From a virus, in the UHGV virus genome UHGV-0377591: a stretch of 44,209 bases of DNA; one strand, 5' to 3'. The translations under genes were made by a program, and so were the position numbers. Shown in pieces: positions 1 through 44,209 of the stretch. Position 1 is the first letter of the stretch; each line of letters opens with the position of its first letter. The notes beneath the pieces were generated by a model that made no database searches, was not told where the DNA came from, and saw nothing but the letters and a program-made list of their open reading frames with translations.

Positions 1-2
1 AA

Positions 3-44
3 CCGAATGAAATGCTGGTAGTGACAGAAGAGGATTTGGAATAG
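3..44 (+). CDS. 3' end of an ORF entering from the left edge (…PNEMLVVTEEDLE*); probably the wrapped end of the primase/helicase gene
   Basis: Open frame from the window edge to TAG at 42-44. Codon phase matches ORF 42013..44209 if position 44209 joins position 1. Confidence 0.4.
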   Translation, partial: PNEMLVVTEEDLE

Positions 45-46
45 GT

Positions 47-76
47 AAAAAAAAAGAAAGGGGCGTTAAGCCCCTT
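47..76 (-). terminator. Rho-independent terminator after the HTH gene (also closes the rightward ORF ending at 44)
   Basis: Stem GGGGC-GTTA-GCCCC at 60-74 preceded on the plus strand by A9 (47-55), which is a T-run on the minus strand. Confidence 0.7.
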
Positions 77-281
77 CACCGAACGCCAGCCACTTGGCGT
101 CTACTTGCAGCACTTCCGCCAGTTTAAACAGCGTCGCCGGGCGGACGTCCTGAGTTACCCCAAGTGCCAGTTGGTTAATCGCGCCCTGGGAAACGCCAGT
201 CAGGACAGCCAGACGGCGCTGGGAGATGCCGAGTTCTTTGCGGCGTTGTTCTACACGGATGCCTAGTTCAGATGGTTGCAT
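66..281 (-). CDS. XRE-family helix-turn-helix transcriptional regulator (Cro/CI-like), 71 aa
   Basis: ORF track; HTH signature ELGISQRRLAVLTGVSQGAINQL; GGAG ribosome-binding site upstream; diverges from the early operon. Confidence 0.8.
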   Translation of the reverse strand: MQPSELGIRVEQRRKELGISQRRLAVLTGVSQGAINQLALGVTQDVRPATLFKLAEVLQVDAKWLAFGEGA

Positions 282-311
282 GTCAATTACTCCTTAGTCA
301 GTTGATATGTG

Positions 312-325
312 AATAGTACCATATT
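312..325 (-). promoter_or_regulatory. Imperfect operator palindrome AATAG-TACC-ATATT upstream of the HTH gene
   Basis: Minus-strand reading gives TACTATTCACAT about 30 nt upstream of the HTH start, the same core as the class II promoters below; no good -35. Confidence 0.4.
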
Positions 326-345
326 AATTATTTTAGAAAAGCCCA

Positions 346-374
346 TTGACATGTGAATAGTTCGCTATTATAGT
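346..374 (+). promoter_or_regulatory. Early sigma70-like promoter (class I) with operator palindrome in the spacer
   Basis: TTGACA (346-351), 17-bp spacer, TATAGT (369-374); AATAG-TTCG-CTATT at 356-369 lies inside the spacer. Confidence 0.6.
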
Positions 375-405
375 TAGTCCATACAAAACGAGAGGAGAGA
401 AACAA

Positions 406-946: not shown

Positions 947-1219
947 ATGATTTACCAACTCTACCGCGCCGTTGACTGGCGGGATAACGCAGAGGCGCTA
1001 TGGCTGTTGCGCGCTCCGTCCGGCGCACACCAGATGGAAGAGATGGCGTACTTAGGCAAAGTACCGCGGCCTAAAGACATAGGCCGTCACGTGTCGCAGA
1101 TTAAGCGCACGACTTTTGCCAAGCCTGACTTTTATGTCTTCGAGTCGATGTATGGGTGGGTCATGCATTGCCATCACCAGACACGGCATTTGATTGACCA
1201 GTGGGAGAACAGGGTATGA
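947..1219 (+). CDS. Hypothetical protein, 90 aa
   Basis: ORF track; stop overlaps the next start (ATGA at 1216-1219). Confidence 0.6.
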   Translation: MIYQLYRAVDWRDNAEALWLLRAPSGAHQMEEMAYLGKVPRPKDIGRHVSQIKRTTFAKPDFYVFESMYGWVMHCHHQTRHLIDQWENRV

Positions 1220-2457
1220 TTCTAAAAGAACGTGGCGGCAATAACGATGTGCACGCCTTACTGTCACCGTCAGGCGCTAAAAAGTGGCTAAGCTGCGCCG
1301 CATCGCTGGCCTGTGAAAAAGATATTCCTAACACATCTGGTAAAGACGCCGTTACAGGGACCGCGTGTCACACCATAGCCGAGGTCCATTTAAATCAGTA
1401 CATCAAAGGCACTGCGTTGCCGTTAGAGCGTGAAGTCGGTGCTTACGTGCTGGATGAAGGCAAAGGCCAGATTAAGGCGTTAATCAGCCCTATGAAAGGT
1501 GCGGTACTTATTACGGCGGACATGATTGAGCAGGTGCGTAAGTACACCGACTACTGCAAACCGATTATCGACGTAGCGACTTACGCCAAGCTGGAAATGC
1601 GCGTCAATCTTACAGAGGTGCTGCATCCGGGATATGAAGGCGTTGAGACGTTCGGGACCGCTGACCTTGTTGCCGTGCAGGAACTGGCGAACACCGACGA
1701 GCACATGCTCATTATTGGAGACCTTAAAACAGGACGGCACCGTGTTGAAGCGAAAGAAAACAAGCAGCTTATGCTTTATGCTCTCGGTGTTTATCGCCGA
1801 CTCAAGAGACGATATAACATCACAGTTGTTCGTCTGGTCATCTTCCAGCCGTACGCTGGGGGCGCGTCGGAGTGGGACATCTCGGTTGAAGGTCTGGAAC
1901 TGTTCGCTAAGTTCGCACGGAAACGTGCACTGTTAGCATTAGATGCGTATTTCCGTGGTAAAAAGAACCTTAAAGCGTCGGACTTCAAGCCGTCAGTAGA
2001 TGGTTGCCAGTGGTGTCGGTTCTCTGAACAGTGCGCCGCGCGTACAAAAACCGTTAACTCTGTACTGGCGGAAGAACTGGAAGATGACTTTGCGCCGGAG
2101 CTTACGCCGGAGCAACTCGTAACCGAGTATGAGAAGTTGCCGTTGTTGCGTCAACACATCGACAAGGTTGAGAAAGCTATGGCTGCCGCGTTGCATTCCG
2201 GTAAGAAAGTTCCGGGGTACAAGCTGGTCGAGGGTCGTCCTGGTAATCGTGCGTGGAAAGATGCAGAGAAAGTAGCAGAACTCTACGGCGACAAGCTGAC
2301 TAAAGAAGTGCTCATGACGCCGACAGAAGCTGTTAAAGTTATCCCGGAAGAAGAACTGAAAGACTTCATTACCCGTAAGCCGGGAGCGCCATGCGTCGCC
2401 GCGGCAGACGATAAACGGCCTGAGTGGGACAGTGTAACAGAGGAGGATTTAGAATGA
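1216..2457 (+). CDS. PD-(D/E)xK Cas4/RecB-like exonuclease with Fe-S cysteine cluster (DUF2800-type)
   Basis: Start moved to ATG 1216 (GGAG upstream). Motifs IGDLKTGR and QLMLYALG; C-terminal CQWCRFSEQC plus N-terminal Cys; ends VTEEDLE. Confidence 0.75.
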   Translation: MILKERGGNNDVHALLSPSGAKKWLSCAASLACEKDIPNTSGKDAVTGTACHTIAEVHLNQYIKGTALPLEREVGAYVLDEGKGQIKALISPMKGAVLITADMIEQVRKYTDYCKPIIDVATYAKLEMRVNLTEVLHPGYEGVETFGTADLVAVQELANTDEHMLIIGDLKTGRHRVEAKENKQLMLYALGVYRRLKRRYNITVVRLVIFQPYAGGASEWDISVEGLELFAKFARKRALLALDAYFRGKKNLKASDFKPSVDGCQWCRFSEQCAARTKTVNSVLAEELEDDFAPELTPEQLVTEYEKLPLLRQHIDKVEKAMAAALHSGKKVPGYKLVEGRPGNRAWKDAEKVAELYGDKLTKEVLMTPTEAVKVIPEEELKDFITRKPGAPCVAAADDKRPEWDSVTEEDLE

Positions 2458-2954
2458 GTTTAGTCCGGGAGCGTTTCATTTATGACAACGGGAAACTAAT
2501 CTATCGCCACAATACAAAAAGAATGTTAGCGGGTCATGAGGCAGGAAGCCTCCACCATTCAGGGTATGTGCAGATATACATTAATCGTAAGTCCTACCAA
2601 AGAAGCCGTTTAATATGGGAGTACCACAACGGCCCTATACCTGAAGGGTTTGAGGTGGACCATATAAATGCGATAAGAAATGATGACAGGATAGAGAATC
2701 TCCAGTTAATCGCCCATAGTGATAATGTGGCTAAAGGTGGTATTCAAACCGGAAGAAGTCATAACAAAAGTGGGTACACTGGCGTGTTTTGGCGCAAAAG
2801 CCACGGTAAATGGCAAGCTGGAATTACCGTAAACGGGCAATATCGTTACCTTGGACTATTCGAAACTCCTGAACATGCTAACGTGGCAAGAAAGAATTTT
2901 GAAAGTAATTTGCTAAAAGAAGTTGACTACCGAATAGCGAACTATTATAGTTAA
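2454..2954 (+). CDS. HNH homing endonuclease with AP2-like DNA-binding domain
   Basis: Start moved to ATG 2454 (AGGAGG upstream, ATGA overlap). HNH core EVDHIN…NDDRIENLQL; AP2-like GYTGVFWRKSHGKWQAGITVNGQYRYLGLFETPEHA. Confidence 0.8.
   Translation: MSLVRERFIYDNGKLIYRHNTKRMLAGHEAGSLHHSGYVQIYINRKSYQRSRLIWEYHNGPIPEGFEVDHINAIRNDDRIENLQLIAHSDNVAKGGIQTGRSHNKSGYTGVFWRKSHGKWQAGITVNGQYRYLGLFETPEHANVARKNFESNLLKEVDYRIANYYS
2923..2951 (+). promoter_or_regulatory. Early sigma70-like promoter (class I) embedded in the 3' end of the HNH gene
   Basis: TTGACT (2923-2928), 17-bp spacer, TATAGT (2946-2951); AATAG-CGAA-CTATT at 2933-2946. Confidence 0.55.
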
Positions 2955-3027: not shown

Positions 3028-3654
3028 GTGGGACTGAAATTAAATCTGCGTAAAGTAAACACTGCATGGGTTAACGTATTCGAACGCGAAAAAGACCGTG
3101 AAAACGATGATGGCTCAATCACTAAAGGCCAGTACAGCGCAACGATTATCCTGCCGTCTGACCATGCTCAAATCGATGCGCTCTACGACACCGTTTACGC
3201 GGTAGTTGAAGAAGCATTGGGCGCCGCCGCTGCCGAGAAGTGGATGAAATCCAACTACGGCGAAGGTAAGCACATGGATAAATGCGCGATTAAAGACATT
3301 GCCGAGCGCGACAATCCGTTTGAAGACTTCCCGGAAGGATTCTACTTCAAAGCGAAGGCGCAGAAACAGCCACTAATTGTAACCTCTAAAAAAGGTGAGA
3401 CACAGGTAGAGCAGGACTTCAATGCAGACGGCGAGCAGATTGAAGGTGAACAGGTTTACAGCGGCTGTGTTGCCAACGTAAGCGTTGAAATCTGGTTCAG
3501 CCAGAAATACAAAGTTCTCGGTGTTAACCTGCTGGCGATTAAATACGTCGGTGAAGGTAAGGCGTTCGGGGGTTCTAAAGTAGCCGCCAGCGTCGACGAC
3601 CTGGAAGACGACGAAGAGGGTGAAGCACCGCGCCGCGAACGTCGCCGCCGCTAA
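3028..3654 (+). CDS. Putative single-strand DNA-binding protein (DUF2815-like), 208 aa
   Basis: ORF track (GTG start after GAGGG). Sits between the Cas4-like exonuclease and the DNA polymerase; acidic C-terminal region DDLEDDEEGE. Function assigned from context and memory only. Confidence 0.5.
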   Translation: MGLKLNLRKVNTAWVNVFEREKDRENDDGSITKGQYSATIILPSDHAQIDALYDTVYAVVEEALGAAAAEKWMKSNYGEGKHMDKCAIKDIAERDNPFEDFPEGFYFKAKAQKQPLIVTSKKGETQVEQDFNADGEQIEGEQVYSGCVANVSVEIWFSQKYKVLGVNLLAIKYVGEGKAFGGSKVAASVDDLEDDEEGEAPRRERRRR

Positions 3655-6011: not shown

Positions 6012-6106
6012 AAATTTACTGGTTATACGAGGAAGACTGTCGAATCTGTCCGCGCTGCGGGATTGAGCATACGAAACGTGAGGGGTGCGTAGATGAGTAC
6101 GCCTGA
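6008..6106 (+). CDS. Small four-cysteine zinc-ribbon-like protein, 32 aa (not in the ORF track)
   Basis: Manual translation MKIYWLYEEDCRICPRCGIEHTKREGCVDEYA; overlaps both neighbours. Confidence 0.3.
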   Translation: MKIYWLYEEDCRICPRCGIEHTKREGCVDEYA

Positions 6107-6380
6107 GGGGCGCGTGCAGAAATACGCAAAAGACCGATTCGAGGCCATCGGTGGCCTCGTACGCAAATTGTCGTACGAAAATAGAGTGGGTGCCCCTGAC
6201 CTGCTGGTAATTCTCCCCGGCGGCATTGTCTGGTTTATCGAGGTTAAGAAAGACGAAAACACGAAGCCAGACCCGCACCAGCTACGTGAACACGAGCGGA
6301 TGCGTAAACGCGGCGCGAATGTTTTTGTCGTTGGTTCGATAAAACAGGTTGACGACCTAATAGCGAACTATTATAGTTAG
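6093..6380 (+). CDS. VRR-NUC family PD-(D/E)xK nuclease, 95 aa
   Basis: Motifs GAPDLLVI and FIEVKKDEN; C-terminus IANYYS is encoded by the promoter/operator element. Confidence 0.75.
   Translation: MSTPEGRVQKYAKDRFEAIGGLVRKLSYENRVGAPDLLVILPGGIVWFIEVKKDENTKPDPHQLREHERMRKRGANVFVVGSIKQVDDLIANYYS
6349..6377 (+). promoter_or_regulatory. Early sigma70-like promoter (class I) embedded in the 3' end of the VRR-NUC gene
   Basis: TTGACG (6349-6354), 17-bp spacer, TATAGT (6372-6377); AATAG-CGAA-CTATT at 6359-6372. Confidence 0.55.
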
Positions 6381-6410: not shown

Positions 6411-6605
6411 ATGAAACACGAATATGACCGCAAACCAGCACGTGACATCGTACCTGGCGATATGATTTTCAACGTTAAGACCCGTCGTCCTGTTGCCGTT
6501 GATACGGTGTTCGTCGAGTCGAACGGTAAACTGGTTATCGAAGACGTAACGGGTAATGTTACGGCGTTTGGGCGGAAGGAATTGGTACTCTACGTTAAGG
6601 GTTGA
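6411..6605 (+). CDS. Hypothetical protein, 64 aa
   Basis: ORF track; ribosome-binding site AAGGAATTGAGAA upstream. Confidence 0.6.
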   Translation: MKHEYDRKPARDIVPGDMIFNVKTRRPVAVDTVFVESNGKLVIEDVTGNVTAFGRKELVLYVKG

Positions 6606-6607
6606 TT

Positions 6608-8032
6608 ATGTCTAAATTTATCCGTCGAGAGTACCAGAAGCTCATGACTTCGTTCATGCTGCAACACCCGCGCTGTAATATTTGGGCCTCGATGGGCGCG
6701 GGCAAAAGTTCCGCAACGATGTGGGTTCTAAACCGCCTGTTCCGCAACGGGCAGCTTACGGAAGAGGACCGCGTGTTAATCCTCGCCCCGTTACGTGTTG
6801 CATCCGGTACGTGGCCCGCAGAACAAACTAAGTGGGGTTTCCCTTGTCTGAGTGTCGTCGATGCGACCGGTAGCGAGAGGCGTCGCATCGCGGCGCTGGA
6901 GTCGGACGCTAACGTGGTATGCACCAACTACGAAGTTATCGAGTGGCTGATTGACTACTACGGCAAAGACGACTGGCCTTTTACGGTTATCGTTGCCGAT
7001 GAGAGCACGAAACTGAAATCATTCCGCAGTCGTTCAGGCGGCAGCAAGCGGGCAAAGGCGCTTAGCAAGGTTGCGTTCGGTAAGGTCAAGCGTTTTATAA
7101 ACCTGACGGGAACGCCATCACCTAACGGCCTCAAAGACTTGTGGGGCCAGAACTGGTTTATCGACGCGGGCGAGCGCCTCGGCTCATCGTACACGGCATT
7201 CACCGACCGCTGGTTCAACTCGGTACAGAAAGGCAAATCGGCTATGGCGCGCGAATACCACGCTCGCCCTGGTGCGGATAATGAAATTCACCAGAATATG
7301 AAAGACATCAGCCTGACGATTGACGCCGCCGAGTGGTTTGGTTGTGAAGCACCTATTATCGTGCCGATGGAAATTGACCTGCCGAAGAAAGCGCGTCAGG
7401 CGTACATAGATATGGAGGAGAAGCTATTCGCAGAACTGGAAAGTGGGGAAGTTGAAGCGGCTAACGCCGCGGCGAAGACGTCGAAGTGCTTGCAGATTGC
7501 ATCTGGTGCCGTATATGTGTCAGGGCCGGACGGAGAAGCAACGAAAGACTGGGAGAAAGTGCACGACACGAAACTGGATGCGCTTGAGTCAATTGTTGAG
7601 GAGTTACAAGGTGCGCCGTTGCTGGTGGCCTATCAGTTCAAGCACGAACTGGAGCGCATCCTTAAGAGATTCCCACAAGCCCAGGCGTTCGCCAAAGGCG
7701 CGAATGGCAATAAGCAGATGGAAGCGTGGAACCGTGGTGAAATCGAAATCCTATGCGTGCACCCTGCGTCAGCCGGGCATGGTCTCAATTTACAGGACGG
7801 TGGCCATCATCTGGCGTTTATTTCGCAAGGGTGGAACCTTGAGCACTATTTGCAGGTTGTTGAGCGTATAGGTCCAGTCCGACAAAAACAGGCGGGCCAC
7901 GAACGACCGGTATTTCTCTACCACATCGTTGCTAAAGACACGCTGGATGAGGTTGTTGCCGCGCGTACAGACGAGAAGAAATCGGTCCAGGAAGAGTTGC
8001 TTAATTACATGAAGAGACGAGGTAAGAAATGA
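6608..8032 (+). CDS. SF2 (SNF2/DEAD-like) DNA helicase
   Basis: Start moved to ATG 6608 (AAGGG upstream). Walker A SMGAGKSS; motif II VIVADESTKLKS. Confidence 0.8.
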   Translation: MSKFIRREYQKLMTSFMLQHPRCNIWASMGAGKSSATMWVLNRLFRNGQLTEEDRVLILAPLRVASGTWPAEQTKWGFPCLSVVDATGSERRRIAALESDANVVCTNYEVIEWLIDYYGKDDWPFTVIVADESTKLKSFRSRSGGSKRAKALSKVAFGKVKRFINLTGTPSPNGLKDLWGQNWFIDAGERLGSSYTAFTDRWFNSVQKGKSAMAREYHARPGADNEIHQNMKDISLTIDAAEWFGCEAPIIVPMEIDLPKKARQAYIDMEEKLFAELESGEVEAANAAAKTSKCLQIASGAVYVSGPDGEATKDWEKVHDTKLDALESIVEELQGAPLLVAYQFKHELERILKRFPQAQAFAKGANGNKQMEAWNRGEIEILCVHPASAGHGLNLQDGGHHLAFISQGWNLEHYLQVVERIGPVRQKQAGHERPVFLYHIVAKDTLDEVVAARTDEKKSVQEELLNYMKRRGKK

Positions 8033-8378: not shown

Positions 8379-10751
8379 TTAAATGACGAATTGAGATGAA
8401 GATTTAACCGTTATTGTGTTACCGGAAGCCCCCTTGTTAATCAGGGCTATCTTGCCGCCAGAGTGACCAGTAACAGTTTGTTGAACAGTGCCGCCGGTAG
8501 TGGGTTTAACTGTTATTGTAGGTACTGAAGGTGCCAGGCCGGCTGTGAGCATGACTTCGCCGGTCACATCGCAAGTCAAGGTGCCGATAACAGTAAGTGC
8601 GCCAAAAAGCATCGTCGAGATCTCGATGCCAGTCGCCACTCGCTTGGCGACAACTCCACTTTGTGACGTGGGTTTGTAGTAAAAAACAACACCACAACCA
8701 ACGGGCAAAGCTGACAGGACAACATTTTGAACATTTGATGACTTAGTAGCGCCGTACATATCCGGTGCTTCATCATTTGCGGTTTCAGCCGCATATGACA
8801 ATAACAGATCAGCTTTATCCCTTAATTGACCGTAAACACCCTTTATCGCATTTGCAGCCAGGTATACAGAGGCGTTCTGAGAACATGATTCGTTCAGCTC
8901 TCCTCTGAATAACAGAGCGGGAGGGTATACTTTTGACGGCGTACCATCGTAAATAATCTCAATCTGATTCAGTCCTTTTCTAAGGATCCCAGTTCGTGTG
9001 GTGAGTTTGTTCGTAAACGATGAGACGCCATTACTCGCGATATTACCGGAGCTATATGCTGTATTACGGGTATCTTGTTGGCGTATTGATACAGTATTTG
9101 CGCGCCTGGAACCAATGTAAGTAGGGTTATATGGCTCAAAAATAACCATTGATATGTCAGAAGTATCACACCAGACAAAATATCGTATGGTTAAATTTTC
9201 AGTAGCGGGCTTAACCACGCCCCATCCGGTAAGCCCATCCAGGTATGAATTTCCGCTAAGTCGCTCCATAGAAACGTCATATGTACTGCCGGAAGGGTAC
9301 CCGAATGGTTGGATATCGTTAGGCGACACAGGCAGGAAATTATTCCCTTTTGTGGCCTTATGGACGCGATAAGGCATAACCTTGGTCGCGGCATAAGCGC
9401 CAATATATTGGTGACCAAGGGGCGCAAAGTGCGTGTAGTCGAAAGAGCCATCGGTAGGACGACGGCAAATTTCTCCTAAGGTGTAGCTACCGACATCTCT
9501 GTACATCTCAGTTACTGCCTGAGAGAGATCGAGGAACTCTACCGCGGGGAACAGGCGTTCAATATGCTTCTTGATTGATGCCTCGAGAGCCGCCCGTTGT
9601 GAGCCATTCTGGTTCATTGAAACAACGCAGACAGCACATCCATAGCCCCATGCTTTACGGATAAACTGCTCAAAACGGAATAAGTACTGATCGAACCCTA
9701 ACGTATCCAGTTGGCCGTTATCGTTAACGCCCATAGACATAAAGCAGACATCCGGTGGAACATTCCCGTATGCAGTGTTTTTGAAAAAGCCATGGTCGAA
9801 ATTACGATTAGCCCACCCGTCAATAAGTCGCTTTCCAGAAGATGCGCAGTTTTCTGCTTTAAAGATGAAAGCACCATTTTTTGTAAATCGGTTAAGCCAG
9901 TCCGTGAAGGTACGGAACCAGGAACCTGCGCCACCATTGCCATTGTGGTCGTAATTAGTCGAAGAAAGGTCCCCGTTTGAATCAGTTGGGTTGGCTACCC
10001 AGTCGGTTCCGTATGCGCCGTCTGTGATTGAGTCACCAATGATACCAACACGACATAGCGTATTGCGGCGAGCGAACTGGTTTATTACGTTGAATGCAGT
10101 GTATTTGCTCCCATGAGTTGCCAGTGAAACGTCGAAAATGTGCTCGTTACCCCATGGGTCGCGCGTGAGAATTTTTCCTTCACCAGTAAATTTTGTTACA
10201 TCATCATCTGGCAGGAAATTACAGCGTAGCTGGACGTCTTTTGGGATATAAACTTTGCCAGGGAATGCATACAATGCGGCCCGGTTATCTGTTGTGCTGT
10301 TTATAACCACCCCAGGAACATATTTAACGGCGGTTGCGTCCGTTCTGTACATGCCATTTTCAAGGTCATTGCGTAGATTCGGGTCTGTTTGCGGTTTCCA
10401 ATTTGTGTCCAGTAACGGGTTAGTTTCCGCGGGGACAACCTTTGGTAAAGAACCGCCCCATGAATACCAGGCCATGCTTACTGGGTCATAAACGACCTTA
10501 TTGCGGTCTGTAGCCGATAATGTCCCGCCGGTAGTGAAATCAAAAGATGCCGGGAAGAACCCCGCATCTCGCAACACGGCAGGGAGAGTCTTCTGCATCT
10601 GACCAGTAACCGCGTTGGTCGCATAATCGATATCCGCACCACCGGTTACGCCGCCGGATTTACCGGTAATAACCTCGGCTTCGAAAATCTGGTGCTTCTT
10701 GGCGGTTTGTAAATCCGCCAGGCTTAAAACGTCACCGCATCCGCTTGACAT
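8379..10751 (-). CDS. Tail fibre/spike protein with internal SGNH (GDSL) hydrolase-like domain, 790 aa
   Basis: GDSL block RVGIIGDSITDGAYG; last gene of the tail module; Ser/Thr/Gly-rich C-terminus. Confidence 0.75.
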   Translation of the reverse strand: MSSGCGDVLSLADLQTAKKHQIFEAEVITGKSGGVTGGADIDYATNAVTGQMQKTLPAVLRDAGFFPASFDFTTGGTLSATDRNKVVYDPVSMAWYSWGGSLPKVVPAETNPLLDTNWKPQTDPNLRNDLENGMYRTDATAVKYVPGVVINSTTDNRAALYAFPGKVYIPKDVQLRCNFLPDDDVTKFTGEGKILTRDPWGNEHIFDVSLATHGSKYTAFNVINQFARRNTLCRVGIIGDSITDGAYGTDWVANPTDSNGDLSSTNYDHNGNGGAGSWFRTFTDWLNRFTKNGAFIFKAENCASSGKRLIDGWANRNFDHGFFKNTAYGNVPPDVCFMSMGVNDNGQLDTLGFDQYLFRFEQFIRKAWGYGCAVCVVSMNQNGSQRAALEASIKKHIERLFPAVEFLDLSQAVTEMYRDVGSYTLGEICRRPTDGSFDYTHFAPLGHQYIGAYAATKVMPYRVHKATKGNNFLPVSPNDIQPFGYPSGSTYDVSMERLSGNSYLDGLTGWGVVKPATENLTIRYFVWCDTSDISMVIFEPYNPTYIGSRRANTVSIRQQDTRNTAYSSGNIASNGVSSFTNKLTTRTGILRKGLNQIEIIYDGTPSKVYPPALLFRGELNESCSQNASVYLAANAIKGVYGQLRDKADLLLSYAAETANDEAPDMYGATKSSNVQNVVLSALPVGCGVVFYYKPTSQSGVVAKRVATGIEISTMLFGALTVIGTLTCDVTGEVMLTAGLAPSVPTITVKPTTGGTVQQTVTGHSGGKIALINKGASGNTITVKSSSQFVI

Positions 10752-41492: not shown

Positions 41493-41521
41493 TTGATTTC
41501 CCATTATTCGCAATGTATACT
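41493..41521 (+). promoter_or_regulatory. Sigma70-like promoter for the rightward regulator/primase operon
   Basis: TTGATT (41493-41498), 17-bp spacer, TATACT (41516-41521); no operator palindrome. Confidence 0.5.
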
Positions 41522-41553
41522 TGGTTTCGTTAACTGATGATGAGGGGTTGAGA

Positions 41554-41724
41554 ATGACACAGAATGAAGTAGCTGAGCGTATTGGGGTTACTCGCCGCAC
41601 GCTTAATAACTGGTTAAAGAGTGGGAAGTTCCCGGATTGTTGTATCCGCATTATGGGCCGCCGGCAGCCGGGTACGTTTGACCCGGAGAAAGTGGAAGCG
41701 TGGATTAAGGAGAACGTGAAATGA
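41554..41724 (+). CDS. Small HTH DNA-binding protein (AlpA/excisionase-like fold), 56 aa
   Basis: Start moved to ATG 41554 (GAGGGG upstream). MTQNEVAERIGVTRRTLNNWLKSGKFP. Confidence 0.6.
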   Translation: MTQNEVAERIGVTRRTLNNWLKSGKFPDCCIRIMGRRQPGTFDPEKVEAWIKENVK

Positions 41725-41954
41725 CCGAATTTCAGTCGCGCGTATTTACGGCAGTCGTTTCCTTAACACGTAAAAAAGGGTCGTGCAGCGTTATCGACTT
41801 GCGCCGCAGTTATTTTACGTACTATAGTTCTGCCATTATTGAAGGGTCGTTGAAAGTGCTGGTTAAATCCGGTGTCGTGAAAAACGTTGGCGGGAAATAT
41901 AGCGCTGTTGCTGAAGTTCGCGGAATGATCGCTACTTTAGAAGACCTGGAATAA
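41721..41954 (+). CDS. Hypothetical protein, 77 aa
   Basis: ORF track; ATGA coupling. Confidence 0.55.
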   Translation: MTEFQSRVFTAVVSLTRKKGSCSVIDLRRSYFTYYSSAIIEGSLKVLVKSGVVKNVGGKYSAVAEVRGMIATLEDLE

Positions 41955-42012: not shown

Positions 42013-44209
42013 ATGTCCGATGTAATTTTATCCTACTCGTGGTCACGTCGCAACGCGCGGGCAGAGAAAAAGGATATAAACGTCAGAACCACACACACGG
42101 CAACACTGGACGACCTGAAAGAGCTAATTCAGCCGCTTGATGCTGTTCGTGACGGAATTAACCCGAAGACCGCGCCGGGGTATATCACTGCCGCGTGTGA
42201 CTCTACGCACAGCACCGTAAAAGACCCTGAAACCGCTGACTTTAAGCAAGCACGTAAAGGCTTCTTCTATCGCTGCGACGCGTCTGTAAGCAAATCGTCG
42301 CTCGCCTATCTGGACTTCGACAGCGCAACACCGGAAGAGTATCAGGAAGCTGTGCGCCTGGTTAAGCGCAGCCGCCTGGCTATGTGCCTCTACACCACGG
42401 CATCCCATACCGATGAGTCACCACGCTTTCGCGTCGTCATGCCGATGGCCCGTCCTGTTGAGGGTGGTGACATCATCCGTGTTCGTCATGGCTTGCTTGA
42501 GCACTTCTTCAAAGGCATGGGCGCTGACCGCAGCGGGTTTACTCTGTCACAACCGATGTACCTGCCGCCGGTTGGCTCTACGGTTATCTGGTCGCGCCGC
42601 AACGACCTGATTGACCCGGACGAGTTACTGGAAGGTATCCCCGCCGTTGACGTTAGCAGCGCATCGGATTACCAGATACCGGAAGAACTGCGTACCGCGT
42701 TTACTGATGCGTTTGAGGCGCTGGCGTTTGAGTACGGCGGTGTTATGACGCCCCGCGGCCTTAAGATGCCAGCTACGCCGGAACATGCAGAAAATTACAG
42801 CGACCCTACGCCGCGGCCGGACGACTTCCTGCTGTGCTTCCCGCGCGAGGGCTACGAAGCGCCGAACGTAACCATGATCCACGACACTGACATTACGGCA
42901 ACCGAAGGCATGTCGCCGAAAGAGGTGTGGAAGTATGCGTGTGATGCGACCGGGCTGCCGTTCAGTGAAGTCGCCGAGGCTATCGGATGGGGTGCGCGTG
43001 AATCTGTTTCATGCAGCCTGGACGACCTGGAAGACGATGATGGCTCAGAGGAGGACGAGCTACCGGAACCGGTAAAGGCTGATTTCGTCGTTGAAGGTTA
43101 TATGCCGTCAGACTGCATCTGGGATATCGTCGGGGAGTCGGGCACATACAAATCGTTCTATACGCTGGGGATGATGTATCTTAGCGCCGCCGGATACCGG
43201 TTCGCCGGGGCGGACACCCAGCGTTGCCATCACTTCTATATCGACGGTGAGGGTGGCGCGGCTACACGCACACGTATTGACGCACTCGCGGCTAAATACG
43301 GCGAGGAAGGTAAAGATTATGTACATGTCATCGACATGGGCGAAGTCGGAAAACTGAAAAGCCTGATTAAGTTAATGCGCGAAACTGCGGGGGATGAACC
43401 TATTGGCATGGTTGCGTTTGACACCCTCAACCAGACGCTGGCCCTGACGATCGATAAGTTCGACGAGAACAGCTCATCAACGGCAATCGGTATGGGTAAA
43501 GTTATCGCCATCCTGAAAGAAGTACGCGACGCAACTAAAGCTGCGGTGGGTGTTGTCCACCATACACCGAAGGGCGGAAAGAAAGCCCGTGGTAGCGGGG
43601 CACTGTATGCTGGCGTCGACGTGGAACTGACAATCGAACGTGCAACCGTCCGCCAGATAAACGTATACCACTCTAAATTCAAACATGGGCCTCAACAGAA
43701 AACGGTTGGCATGGTGCTGGAGTCTGTACAGTTCCGTGAAGCACCACCGCCGAAAGAGTACCGTGCTGTCGAGTTCCTGGGTAGCACAGAGGAGTACGGC
43801 ACAATCGTAAACCTGGACCTGCCTGAGCCGCACAAGGCGCTTGTGCTGATGCCGTGGGGCTTCGAGCCGTTCAAGACTGACGAGGAGAAAGAGCGGGAAG
43901 AAGGGCTGACAAAGGAAGGTAAAGAAAACGTAAAGAATGCTGTAAAACGTGGGAAGGATGAAGGGCGTAAGGAATCGATACTCGCCGCGCTTGAAGACCT
44001 GCAACAGTCAGATGACACAGGTCGCGGTTTTACTCAGCAGCAGATAGTGGCCCGTTCCGGTGACTTTTCTGTGACTAACACCCATCTTGATAAAATGCTG
44101 AAAGATGGTGAACTAATGCTAGGCTGTGATGCTAATGGCGAAGTAGTACCGAGAACGTATCGTATGCCTGAAAGAATAGGGGATAGACTAAGACCGAAGA
44201 CAATATACG
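42013..44209 (+). CDS. Primase/helicase: AEP (Prim-Pol) N-terminal domain plus RecA-like helicase domain; 3'-truncated by the window edge
   Basis: Open frame from ATG 42013 to the window end (732 codons; absent from the track because it has no stop). AEP-like LAYLDFDS and TASHTDE; Walker A IVGESGTYKS; Walker B MVAFDTLN. Confidence 0.8.
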   Translation, partial: MSDVILSYSWSRRNARAEKKDINVRTTHTATLDDLKELIQPLDAVRDGINPKTAPGYITAACDSTHSTVKDPETADFKQARKGFFYRCDASVSKSSLAYLDFDSATPEEYQEAVRLVKRSRLAMCLYTTASHTDESPRFRVVMPMARPVEGGDIIRVRHGLLEHFFKGMGADRSGFTLSQPMYLPPVGSTVIWSRRNDLIDPDELLEGIPAVDVSSASDYQIPEELRTAFTDAFEALAFEYGGVMTPRGLKMPATPEHAENYSDPTPRPDDFLLCFPREGYEAPNVTMIHDTDITATEGMSPKEVWKYACDATGLPFSEVAEAIGWGARESVSCSLDDLEDDDGSEEDELPEPVKADFVVEGYMPSDCIWDIVGESGTYKSFYTLGMMYLSAAGYRFAGADTQRCHHFYIDGEGGAATRTRIDALAAKYGEEGKDYVHVIDMGEVGKLKSLIKLMRETAGDEPIGMVAFDTLNQTLALTIDKFDENSSSTAIGMGKVIAILKEVRDATKAAVGVVHHTPKGGKKARGSGALYAGVDVELTIERATVRQINVYHSKFKHGPQQKTVGMVLESVQFREAPPPKEYRAVEFLGSTEEYGTIVNLDLPEPHKALVLMPWGFEPFKTDEEKEREEGLTKEGKENVKNAVKRGKDEGRKESILAALEDLQQSDDTGRGFTQQQIVARSGDFSVTNTHLDKMLKDGELMLGCDANGEVVPRTYRMPERIGDRLRPKTIY

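Follow-up and report, generated by a model that had tools for sequence, protein, structure and literature searches.

In the window analysed here, that is the whole stretch of 44,209 nucleotides of the virus genome UHGV-0377591, two replication proteins with unrelated folds, a Cas4-like exonuclease and a primase-helicase, end with the same acidic peptide, VTEEDLE, and a third small protein, p77, ends with ATLEDLE. The motif is conserved, it is present on unrelated folds and it co-varies in a genome-specific way among the proteins that bear it. These features, together with an SSB (single-stranded DNA-binding protein) and a polymerase of the same families as those of T7, point to a portable docking peptide: by analogy with T7, VTEEDLE is probably an acidic docking tail, carried by several client proteins and directed to a common receptor encoded by the phage. 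The first 6 kb of the window match 453 phage records with 85-91% identity and its ends are spanned without interruption by phage records of 41-45 kb; the window comprises the complete genome, in circularly permuted form, of a Kagunavirus-like E. coli siphophage (Guernseyvirinae; relatives include K1G and K1H).

The shared C-terminal peptide

The exonuclease gene ends with bases 2434..2457 (gtaacagaggaggatttagaatga) and the primase-helicase gene with bases 21..44 (gtgacagaagaggatttggaatag), both encoding V-T-E-E-D-L-E followed by a stop codon. A preliminary description of this DNA had already reported the common end and put its identity at about 18 of 21 nucleotides, and the statement is exact: identity covers 18 of the 21 coding bases, and the three mismatches (gta/gtg, gag/gaa and tta/ttg) fall on third codon positions and are synonymous. 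The stop codons are unlike, TGA in the former and TAG in the latter, and no similarity is found directly upstream of the two tails.

The same description took the frame at the left edge for the likely C-terminus of a primase-helicase continuing from the other end of the window, and both points hold. The open reading frame (ORF) starting from ATG 42013 stays open up to base 44209, where a new codon begins, and its reading goes on in frame 3 of bases 1..44; the joined product has 746 residues, 732 codons and one base lying before the window end, and it matches the AAA_25 domain and phrog_3228. The wrap-around is real, because the same peptide, ...RLRPKTIYEPNEMLVVTEEDLE, runs across the junction in contigs of relatives that have no break there (e.g. 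L004, L007 and L008).

Among the 62 predicted proteins, no 7-mer other than VTEEDLE occurs in two of them, and both copies are C-terminal. Shuffling by local composition, repeated 5000 times, never produced a common suffix of more than 5 residues, and about 5e-6 such pairs are expected; at the DNA level, the 21-mer has 2 matches with at most 3 mismatches, against 0 in 100 shuffles. Chance is excluded as the source of the identity. Both tails are strongly acidic, with Asp or Glu at four of the seven residues. A six-frame scan returned exactly three ORFs with an acidic, Leu-anchored end, namely those of the exonuclease, the helicase and p77; all of them are located in the replication region and in each the tail copy is formed by the extreme C-terminal 7 residues. 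The regular expression [DE]{3}L[DEG] has three matches proteome-wide, one of which is inside the family A DNA polymerase (PolA) (p=0.0085), and it was not used as support.

The third carrier, p77, ends ..GMIATLEDLE, and its homologues end AT[LP]EDLE. The pair of tails in the preliminary description is real in both members; however, the set of carriers is larger, since p77 had been overlooked and additional copies are found inside proteins. In the AlphaFold2 model of p77, residues 1-62 (predicted local distance difference test, pLDDT, >90) form a winged helix, while the tail residues 65-77 have pLDDT <50 and are predicted to be disordered. Foldseek searches with this model gave generic winged-helix matches only, no Pfam or NCBIfam match was obtained for the protein, and its comparison with the C-terminal region of the helicase revealed no homology past the tail. 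A DNA repeat, a promoter and a terminator were also considered for the three gene ends and rejected, their downstream contexts being unrelated.

Looser copies of the motif occur internally, in the linker of the helicase, in the linker of the exonuclease and in the SSB tail. The copy between the two domains of the helicase has as counterparts DEEDLGDEE in Jerseyvirus, CTDEDLDDD in VLCpiS11a and CTDADLDNE in EK99P-1, and it shares the 6-mer DDLEDD with the SSB tail. In the exonuclease, the motif LAEELEDDF, which follows the Cys cluster, aligns with TATD[AE]DLGD of the VLCpiS11a-like and Dhillonvirus exonucleases.

Tails of the relatives and of the wider module

Relatives were drawn from IMG/VR loci, GenBank phages and DUF2800 representatives clustered at 50% identity; a second IMG/VR scan, seeded with distant exonucleases, yielded hardly any new loci. 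With the motif written as [AV][ST][DE][DEG]DL plus 0-3 residues, both tails are kept in 74 IMG/VR loci, down to 44% identity for the exonuclease and about 26% for the helicase, so that the search for the same tail in relatives, proposed in the preliminary description, had a positive outcome. The tails of the two proteins drift together by clade. In Kagunavirus the exonuclease and the helicase both end VTEEDLE and p77 ends ATLEDLE; the corresponding ends are VTEDDLEA, TTEGDLE and, in the p77 homologue, ATPEDLE in Jerseyvirus, and ASDEDLS, ASDEDLNS and, in the 63-residue gp23, TATDEDLE in the Klebsiella VLCpiS11a group. Dhillonvirus has ATDEDLSNE in the exonuclease and ATDDDLKD in the helicase, and no other carrier was found there. 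Exonuclease tails of close relatives conform to [VAI][ST]E[ED]DLE with synonymous codon variation: the codons vary (TTA/TTG, GAA/GAG, four Thr codons, three stop codons; 16 to 32 haplotypes) with a constant peptide, and therefore selection acts on the peptide and not on the DNA.

The exonuclease is widespread: tblastn finds it in 1,451 records of phages whose hosts belong to many groups. When the tails of the replication proteins were read in 19 diverse genomes, each genome displayed its own version, common to several proteins. The carriers are the exonuclease, the SSB and the primase or helicase, sometimes also the SNF2 helicase and small proteins, and never PolA or the VRR-NUC protein. In Enc34 the primase ends ..DDEDEV, ORF3 ..EEEEV, the exonuclease ..DDDEV and the SSB ..DEDEV; in Redjac the exonuclease and the SSB end ..DDDEV and a small protein ..DDDDI; in Aeromonas phage BUCT551 the primase, gp71, the exonuclease, the SSB and the SNF2 helicase all end D[DE][DE]I. 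Bordetella phage BMP-1 has ..EDLV in the exonuclease and ..ADLV in the SSB, and two further loci have the pairs ..EDLSA / ..EDLS (L146) and ..EDFS / ..EDFS (L147). For phages with Firmicutes, Vibrio and Bacteroides hosts, the match to the exonuclease tail lies instead in the first half of the SSB tail; an example is Staphylococcus phage LH1, with AEDDFDKL in the exonuclease and AEDDFDEL in the SSB.

Within-genome similarity of the exonuclease and SSB tails scored 503, against a permuted mean of 381, and that of the exonuclease and primase/helicase tails 269, against 192; in both cases none of 20000 permutations reached the observed value (p<=5e-5), although these p-values overstate the number of independent events, because the genomes are phylogenetically non-independent. 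Controls with the PolA tail were flat, both versus the exonuclease and versus the SSB tails (p=0.56 and 0.77). Among the DUF2800 representatives, the last 16 residues add up to a net charge of -3 or lower in 95 of 146, compared with about 27 of 146 for random internal windows.

The idea that tail-less DUF2800 proteins lack a neighbouring gp2.5 or PolA was discarded, since four of five such proteins (P0256, P0230, P0212 and P0209) adjoin a gp2.5-type SSB, P0233 being the only exception, and PolA is also present in the two contigs that are long enough. Tail-less DUF2800 proteins are located at 1734..3287 of L181 and 103..1329 of L180; P0256 (517 residues) has an extra basic extension of about 135 residues and adjoins the SSB, and in the case of P0233 a radical-SAM gene follows in place of the SSB.

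A different arrangement is seen in two distant IMG/VR contigs, where the DUF2800 nuclease is split just past QxxxY into two overlapping ORFs (L150, 7908..8552 and 8522..9430; L151, 7749..8774 and 8516..9613). Both halves bear the tail of their genome, ..EEELF and ..DEELF in the former, ..EEELF and ..ADELF in the latter; this could be a two-subunit enzyme, a frameshift or an assembly error. L150 apparently has two classes of tail, ..LF on the nuclease halves and on a 274-residue protein, and ..LG on the SSB and on a 173-residue protein.

The carrier proteins and their gene neighbourhood

The exonuclease matches the DUF2800 profile with E=1.6e-68 (232 bits, cut-off 21) and PDDEXK_1 with E=2.8e-8. 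It displays the D...D/E-x-K and QxxxY motifs and four Cys, one N-terminal and three in a C-x2-C-x5-C arrangement, and residues C27, C264, C267, C273, D150, D169, K171, Q184 and Y188 are invariant among 113 diverse homologues with 28-58% identity. The AlphaFold2 model, built on the alignment of the 113 sequences, has a mean pLDDT of 93.5, and its least confident part is the internal acidic linker (block pLDDT 76-77). Foldseek searches with this model retrieved AdnA/AdnB (E=4e-6), Dna2, MGME1, Exo5, AddAB, Cas4 (8d3l, E=4e-4) and RecE; TM-scores are modest, from 0.23 to 0.41, because the core alone aligns. The protein is a Cas4/RecB-type PD-(D/E)XK iron-sulfur nuclease, in agreement with the Cas4-like exonuclease of the preliminary description. 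Just before the tail, D399 and R401 are conserved in at least 90% of the 113 homologues, whose consensus end is ..DKRPAxxxxxxxDFxxxxx, and a D[KP]RP-like anchor is present in 122 of the 146 DUF2800 representatives.

In the primase-helicase, AAA_25, a RecA-type ATPase domain of hexameric helicases, is recognized at residues 352-522 (E=2.7e-17), and the full-length protein matches phrog_3228, 'replicative helicase-primase', with E=7.7e-301. The N-terminal domain (residues 1-340) has no match in Pfam or NCBIfam; in this region there is a PHROG label only, phrog_9765 'DNA primase', at residues 90-189 (E=3.5e-11), and motifs resembling the DxD and SxH of archaeo-eukaryotic primases (LDFD and TASHT) can be read by eye. 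It is not a protein of the T7 gp4 type.

The SSB belongs to the gp2.5-like, Enc34-type family (Pfam Enc34_ssDNA-bd / DUF2815, PF10991, E=1.6e-15, 57.7 bits versus a cut-off of 26; phrog_112, E=7e-42), with a weak match to PDB entry 4jg2. Its sequence terminates ..ASVDDLEDDEEGEAPRRERRRR / ..SVDDLEDDEEGEAPRRERRRR, with the motif internal (DDLEDDEE) and followed by poly-Arg. Acidic-then-basic ends are found in all the Guernseyvirinae-like and Dhillonvirus relatives (..DEDKAPRKRRRR, ..EEERPRRRRR); SSBs of other modules have the usual acidic-plus-hydrophobic tail. The SSB of this phage carries the motif in part and is at the same time a candidate for the receptor.

These genes (Table 1) form the 'duf2800-gp2.5-polA' module, which has been previously described (PMC8093625). 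The T7-like replication context assumed in the preliminary description is borne out by profile and PHROG matches, the phage encoding both a gp2.5-type SSB and a family A polymerase.

Table 1. Positions of the genes and motif copies in the window
Feature	Position	Strand	Remarks
HTH_17 protein	41521..41724	+	
p77, winged-helix protein, 77 residues	41721..41954	+	phrog_5169 (label: unknown function)
p77 tail	41931..41951		
Primase-helicase	42013..44209 joined to 1..44	+	AAA_25; phrog_3228
Helicase inter-domain linker, internal motif copy SLDDLEDDDGSEEDEL	43015..43062	+	position kept in four clades
Primase-helicase, last 14 codons	1..44	+	tail VTEEDLE 21..41; stop codon 42..44
Cro/CI-type helix-turn-helix (HTH) gene	66..281	- (opposite strand)	
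p165, acidic protein, 165 residues	406..903	+	phrog_3127 (label: unknown function)
90-residue protein	947..1219	+	phrog_4965 (label: unknown function)
DUF2800 / Cas4-like (RecB-family, iron-sulfur) exonuclease, 413 residues	1216..2457	+	Pfam DUF2800; phrog_69 exonuclease
Exonuclease linker after Cys cluster, acidic motif LAEELEDDF	2065..2091	+	by alignment
Lead-in to exonuclease tail, DDKRPEWDS	2407..2433	+	D-K-R-P anchor conserved family-wide
Exonuclease tail VTEEDLE	2434..2454	+	stop codon 2455..2457
HNH endonuclease	2454..2954	+	HNH_3; weak AP2-domain match
gp2.5-like (Enc34-type) SSB / annealing protein	3028..3654	+	PF10991; phrog_112
SSB tail, acidic block SVDDLEDDEEGE	3589..3624	+	then PRRERRRR 3628..3651
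PolA, family A DNA polymerase, 724 residues	3716..5890	+	Pfam DNA_pol_A; phrog_17
VRR-NUC-like ORF	6093..6380	+	phrog_93
SNF2 helicase	6602..8032	+	profile matches

Some other features of the region deserve mention. The p165 protein ends ..KNKYFEEE, and proteins encoded at the same position in other phages also have acidic ends (Enc34 ORF3 ..EEEEV, BUCT551 gp71 ..NDDDI, EK99P-1 gp48 ..YFELED, VLCpiS11a gp15 ..EFYDAE). Likened by gene position and ends alone, p165 may be a further client with a variant tail. The ATG of the HNH_3 endonuclease overlaps the stop codon of the exonuclease (gaATGA); the gene looks like a mobile homing-endonuclease insertion, present in some genomes only, because the exonuclease gene of relatives ends with TAA or TGA. 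Between the divergent HTH gene and the p165 gene, within 300..375, the 11-mer ATGTGAATAGT occurs twice (about 306..316 and 349..359), its second copy overlapping a near-consensus sigma-70-like promoter (TTGACA, 17 nt spacer, TATAGT; 346..374); both copies may be operator sites of the Cro/CI-type HTH protein.

Possible roles of the tail and known systems

What we infer from these observations is binding in trans and the identity of the receptor. The tail peptides of this phage considered as ligands are EPNEMLVVTEEDLE, RPEWDSVTEEDLE and VRGMIATLEDLE. The clients would compete for, or alternate on, one basic surface of a phage-encoded replisome component. This is likely PolA, as the basic patches of T7 gp5 would suggest, and/or the gp2.5-like SSB with its concave sheet that binds single-stranded DNA; PolA ranks first as a candidate, being universal in the module and always without the tail, and the SSB groove comes second. 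By means of the tail, the helicase, the nuclease and p77 would be recruited to the fork or to DNA coated with SSB, and hand-off among them would be permitted. Tail sharing and co-variation between SSB and exonuclease in distant modules are what a common docking site predicts, and they have a parallel in gp4 and gp2.5 of T7; moreover, the fact that tail versions differ among phages of the same or close enterobacterial hosts points to a co-evolving receptor encoded by the phage.

Several findings weigh against a common docking tail. The SSB of this very phage lacks a terminal motif, and the anchor of the tails is a Leu at position -2 followed by Glu, with no terminal Phe, differently from T7. 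About a third of the DUF2800 representatives have no acidic tail, and the tail is not obligatory for the module, because tail-less DUF2800 proteins still adjoin the SSB. In addition, the exonuclease tail is predicted to be ordered (AlphaFold2 block pLDDT of 92 over residues 401-410 and of 88 over 411-413; residues 409-412 form a helical turn), and the permutation tests were run on phylogenetically related genomes. The proposal of the preliminary description, that the shared tail marks replisome proteins with a common partner, is kept in part: the tail is conserved and in distant modules the SSB shares it and co-varies with the exonuclease; points that differ are the end of this phage's SSB, the position of the Leu anchor and the predicted packing of the exonuclease tail, and docking on the polymerase is a reading by analogy with T7.

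It is unlikely that each tail acts within its own protein only, as an acidic DNA mimic that folds back and gates the DNA-binding surface of that protein, a role which the gp2.5 tail has in T7 too, without any shared partner. The exonuclease and the helicase do act on DNA, the p77 fold is of a DNA-binding type, removal of the Enc34 ORF6 tail alters DNA specificity, and AlphaFold2 confidently places the exonuclease tail on the exonuclease itself; given this confidence, the tail may be packed against the body of its own protein, where it would be either a piece of the fold or a pseudo-ligand with a self-inhibitory effect. On the other hand, three unrelated folds have different DNA-binding surfaces, for which neither identical peptides nor co-variation with the SSB would be required, the p77 tail is predicted to be disordered, and the five BUCT551 proteins ending D[DE][DE]I would be left unexplained. 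Under the docking reading too, the exonuclease tail may rest on its own protein while unengaged, and binding inside one molecule is a real complication of that reading. A bolder version, put forward tentatively, is that the module, which occurs in about 1,450 deposited phage genomes, runs on a genome-specific 'tail code', by which up to five unrelated proteins (the SSB, the nuclease, the primase or helicase, the SNF2 helicase and small adaptors) would bear one C-terminal peptide and alternate on one phage-encoded hub, with the nuclease tail as a built-in pseudo-ligand that keeps the nuclease closed until a partner displaces it.

Docking on a host protein (for example the sliding clamp, a chaperone or a factor whose normal ligand is the SSB tail of the host) is quite improbable. 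The consensus of the host SSB tip is DDDIPF and that of clamp-binding peptides is QL[SD]LF, and VTEEDLE and ATLEDLE contain neither; furthermore, the anchor residue and its position differ across phages of the same or close hosts (TEEDLE, TD[DE]DL.., DDEV, DF), whereas host pockets are conserved. What speaks for a host receptor is that phage replication proteins often recruit host factors, as in the case of T7 gp5, which uses host thioredoxin (PMC12593628). Finally, it is extremely improbable that the common end is a functionless historical accident, whether through gene conversion or recent copying of a 3' gene end, or as an element acting at the DNA level, for instance a regulatory site or a hotspot of recombination. 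The identity of 18 of 21 bases would suit such an origin; however, the differences are synonymous only, the stop codons and downstream contexts are unlike, the flanks have no similarity, and the peptide stays constant while codons vary over the 16 to 32 haplotypes and is kept to about 26% identity and in unrelated phage groups.

A close known counterpart is found in T7, where two basic patches of gp5 receive the acidic gp4 tails, which have a competitor for the polymerase in the tail of gp2.5 (PMC12593628; bioRxiv 10.64898/2026.05.20.726333). Read in the same way as the tails studied here, gp2.5 ends ..EDGDF and gp4 ..NDTDF, and no such tail is present on gp5 or on the gp6 exonuclease. The two systems have in common short acidic C-terminal peptides with a hydrophobic anchor on different replisome proteins, a gp2.5-type SSB and a tail-less family A polymerase; in Enc34 and BUCT551 the SSB and the primase also share the terminal peptide. 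Conversely, the tail is borne here by an AAA_25 (RepA-like) helicase, by a Cas4-like DUF2800 nuclease and by a winged-helix protein, while T7 gp6 is tail-less, and the present phage has an SSB motif that is internal and followed by poly-Arg, as well as extra internal copies. In T7 tails the terminal aromatic residue is critical. Some related modules do use Phe as anchor (L147 ..EDFS, L150 ..EELF); the tail of this phage is classed as a variant of the T7 docking tails and not as a member of them, because it lacks that defining terminal aromatic residue. Self-binding has been reported for the T7 gp2.5 tail, and it resembles the possible self-packing of the exonuclease tail.

Crystals of gp2.5-family proteins (Enc34 ORF6, two other DUF2815 proteins and T7 gp2.5) show the C-terminus of one molecule placed in the concave beta-sheet of its neighbour (PMC5686142). 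Enc34 ORF6 is of the same SSB family and has the same kind of acidic tail, and the Enc34 exonuclease, primase and ORF3 end like the SSB; the difference is that the last 11 residues are invisible in the crystal, so the groove contact is known without the shared terminal peptide and for SSB tails only. In the network of the bacterial SSB tip and in those of clamp-binding peptides and the PCNA-interacting protein (PIP) box, one short peptide on many proteins is directed to one surface, allowing competition and hand-off. The SSB-tip network differs in having one tail and many receptors, whereas here there are many tail carriers; the tails match neither of the two consensus sequences nor the PIP box, and no clamp gene was found among the annotated genes of the replication module. 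The 'tail code', if it exists, would be the counterpart, without a clamp, of the peptide network around PCNA and the beta-clamp. The lambda Exo/Red-beta and RecE/RecT pairs are similar in that the gene for a 5'-3'-type PD-(D/E)XK nuclease adjoins that for an annealing protein or SSB, and physical contact is expected between exonuclease and annealase (PMC6393309); in lambda, however, this contact occurs through the folded C-terminal domain of Red-beta on Exo and not through a shared acidic tail.

In a full-text literature search, of incomplete coverage, shared tails were found described for T7 gp4 and gp2.5 only. If the docking reading is true, a simple sequence rule would assign proteins of unknown function, such as p77 and Enc34 ORF3, to the replisome; the need for tail versions to match would suggest why replication genes exchange poorly between phages, and short peptides could serve as specific inhibitors of, or handles for, such replisomes. 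In T7, two replisome proteins share an acidic tail for one polymerase; the same principle would then extend to many more proteins of more diverse kinds, in well over a thousand phages with Gram-negative and Gram-positive hosts.

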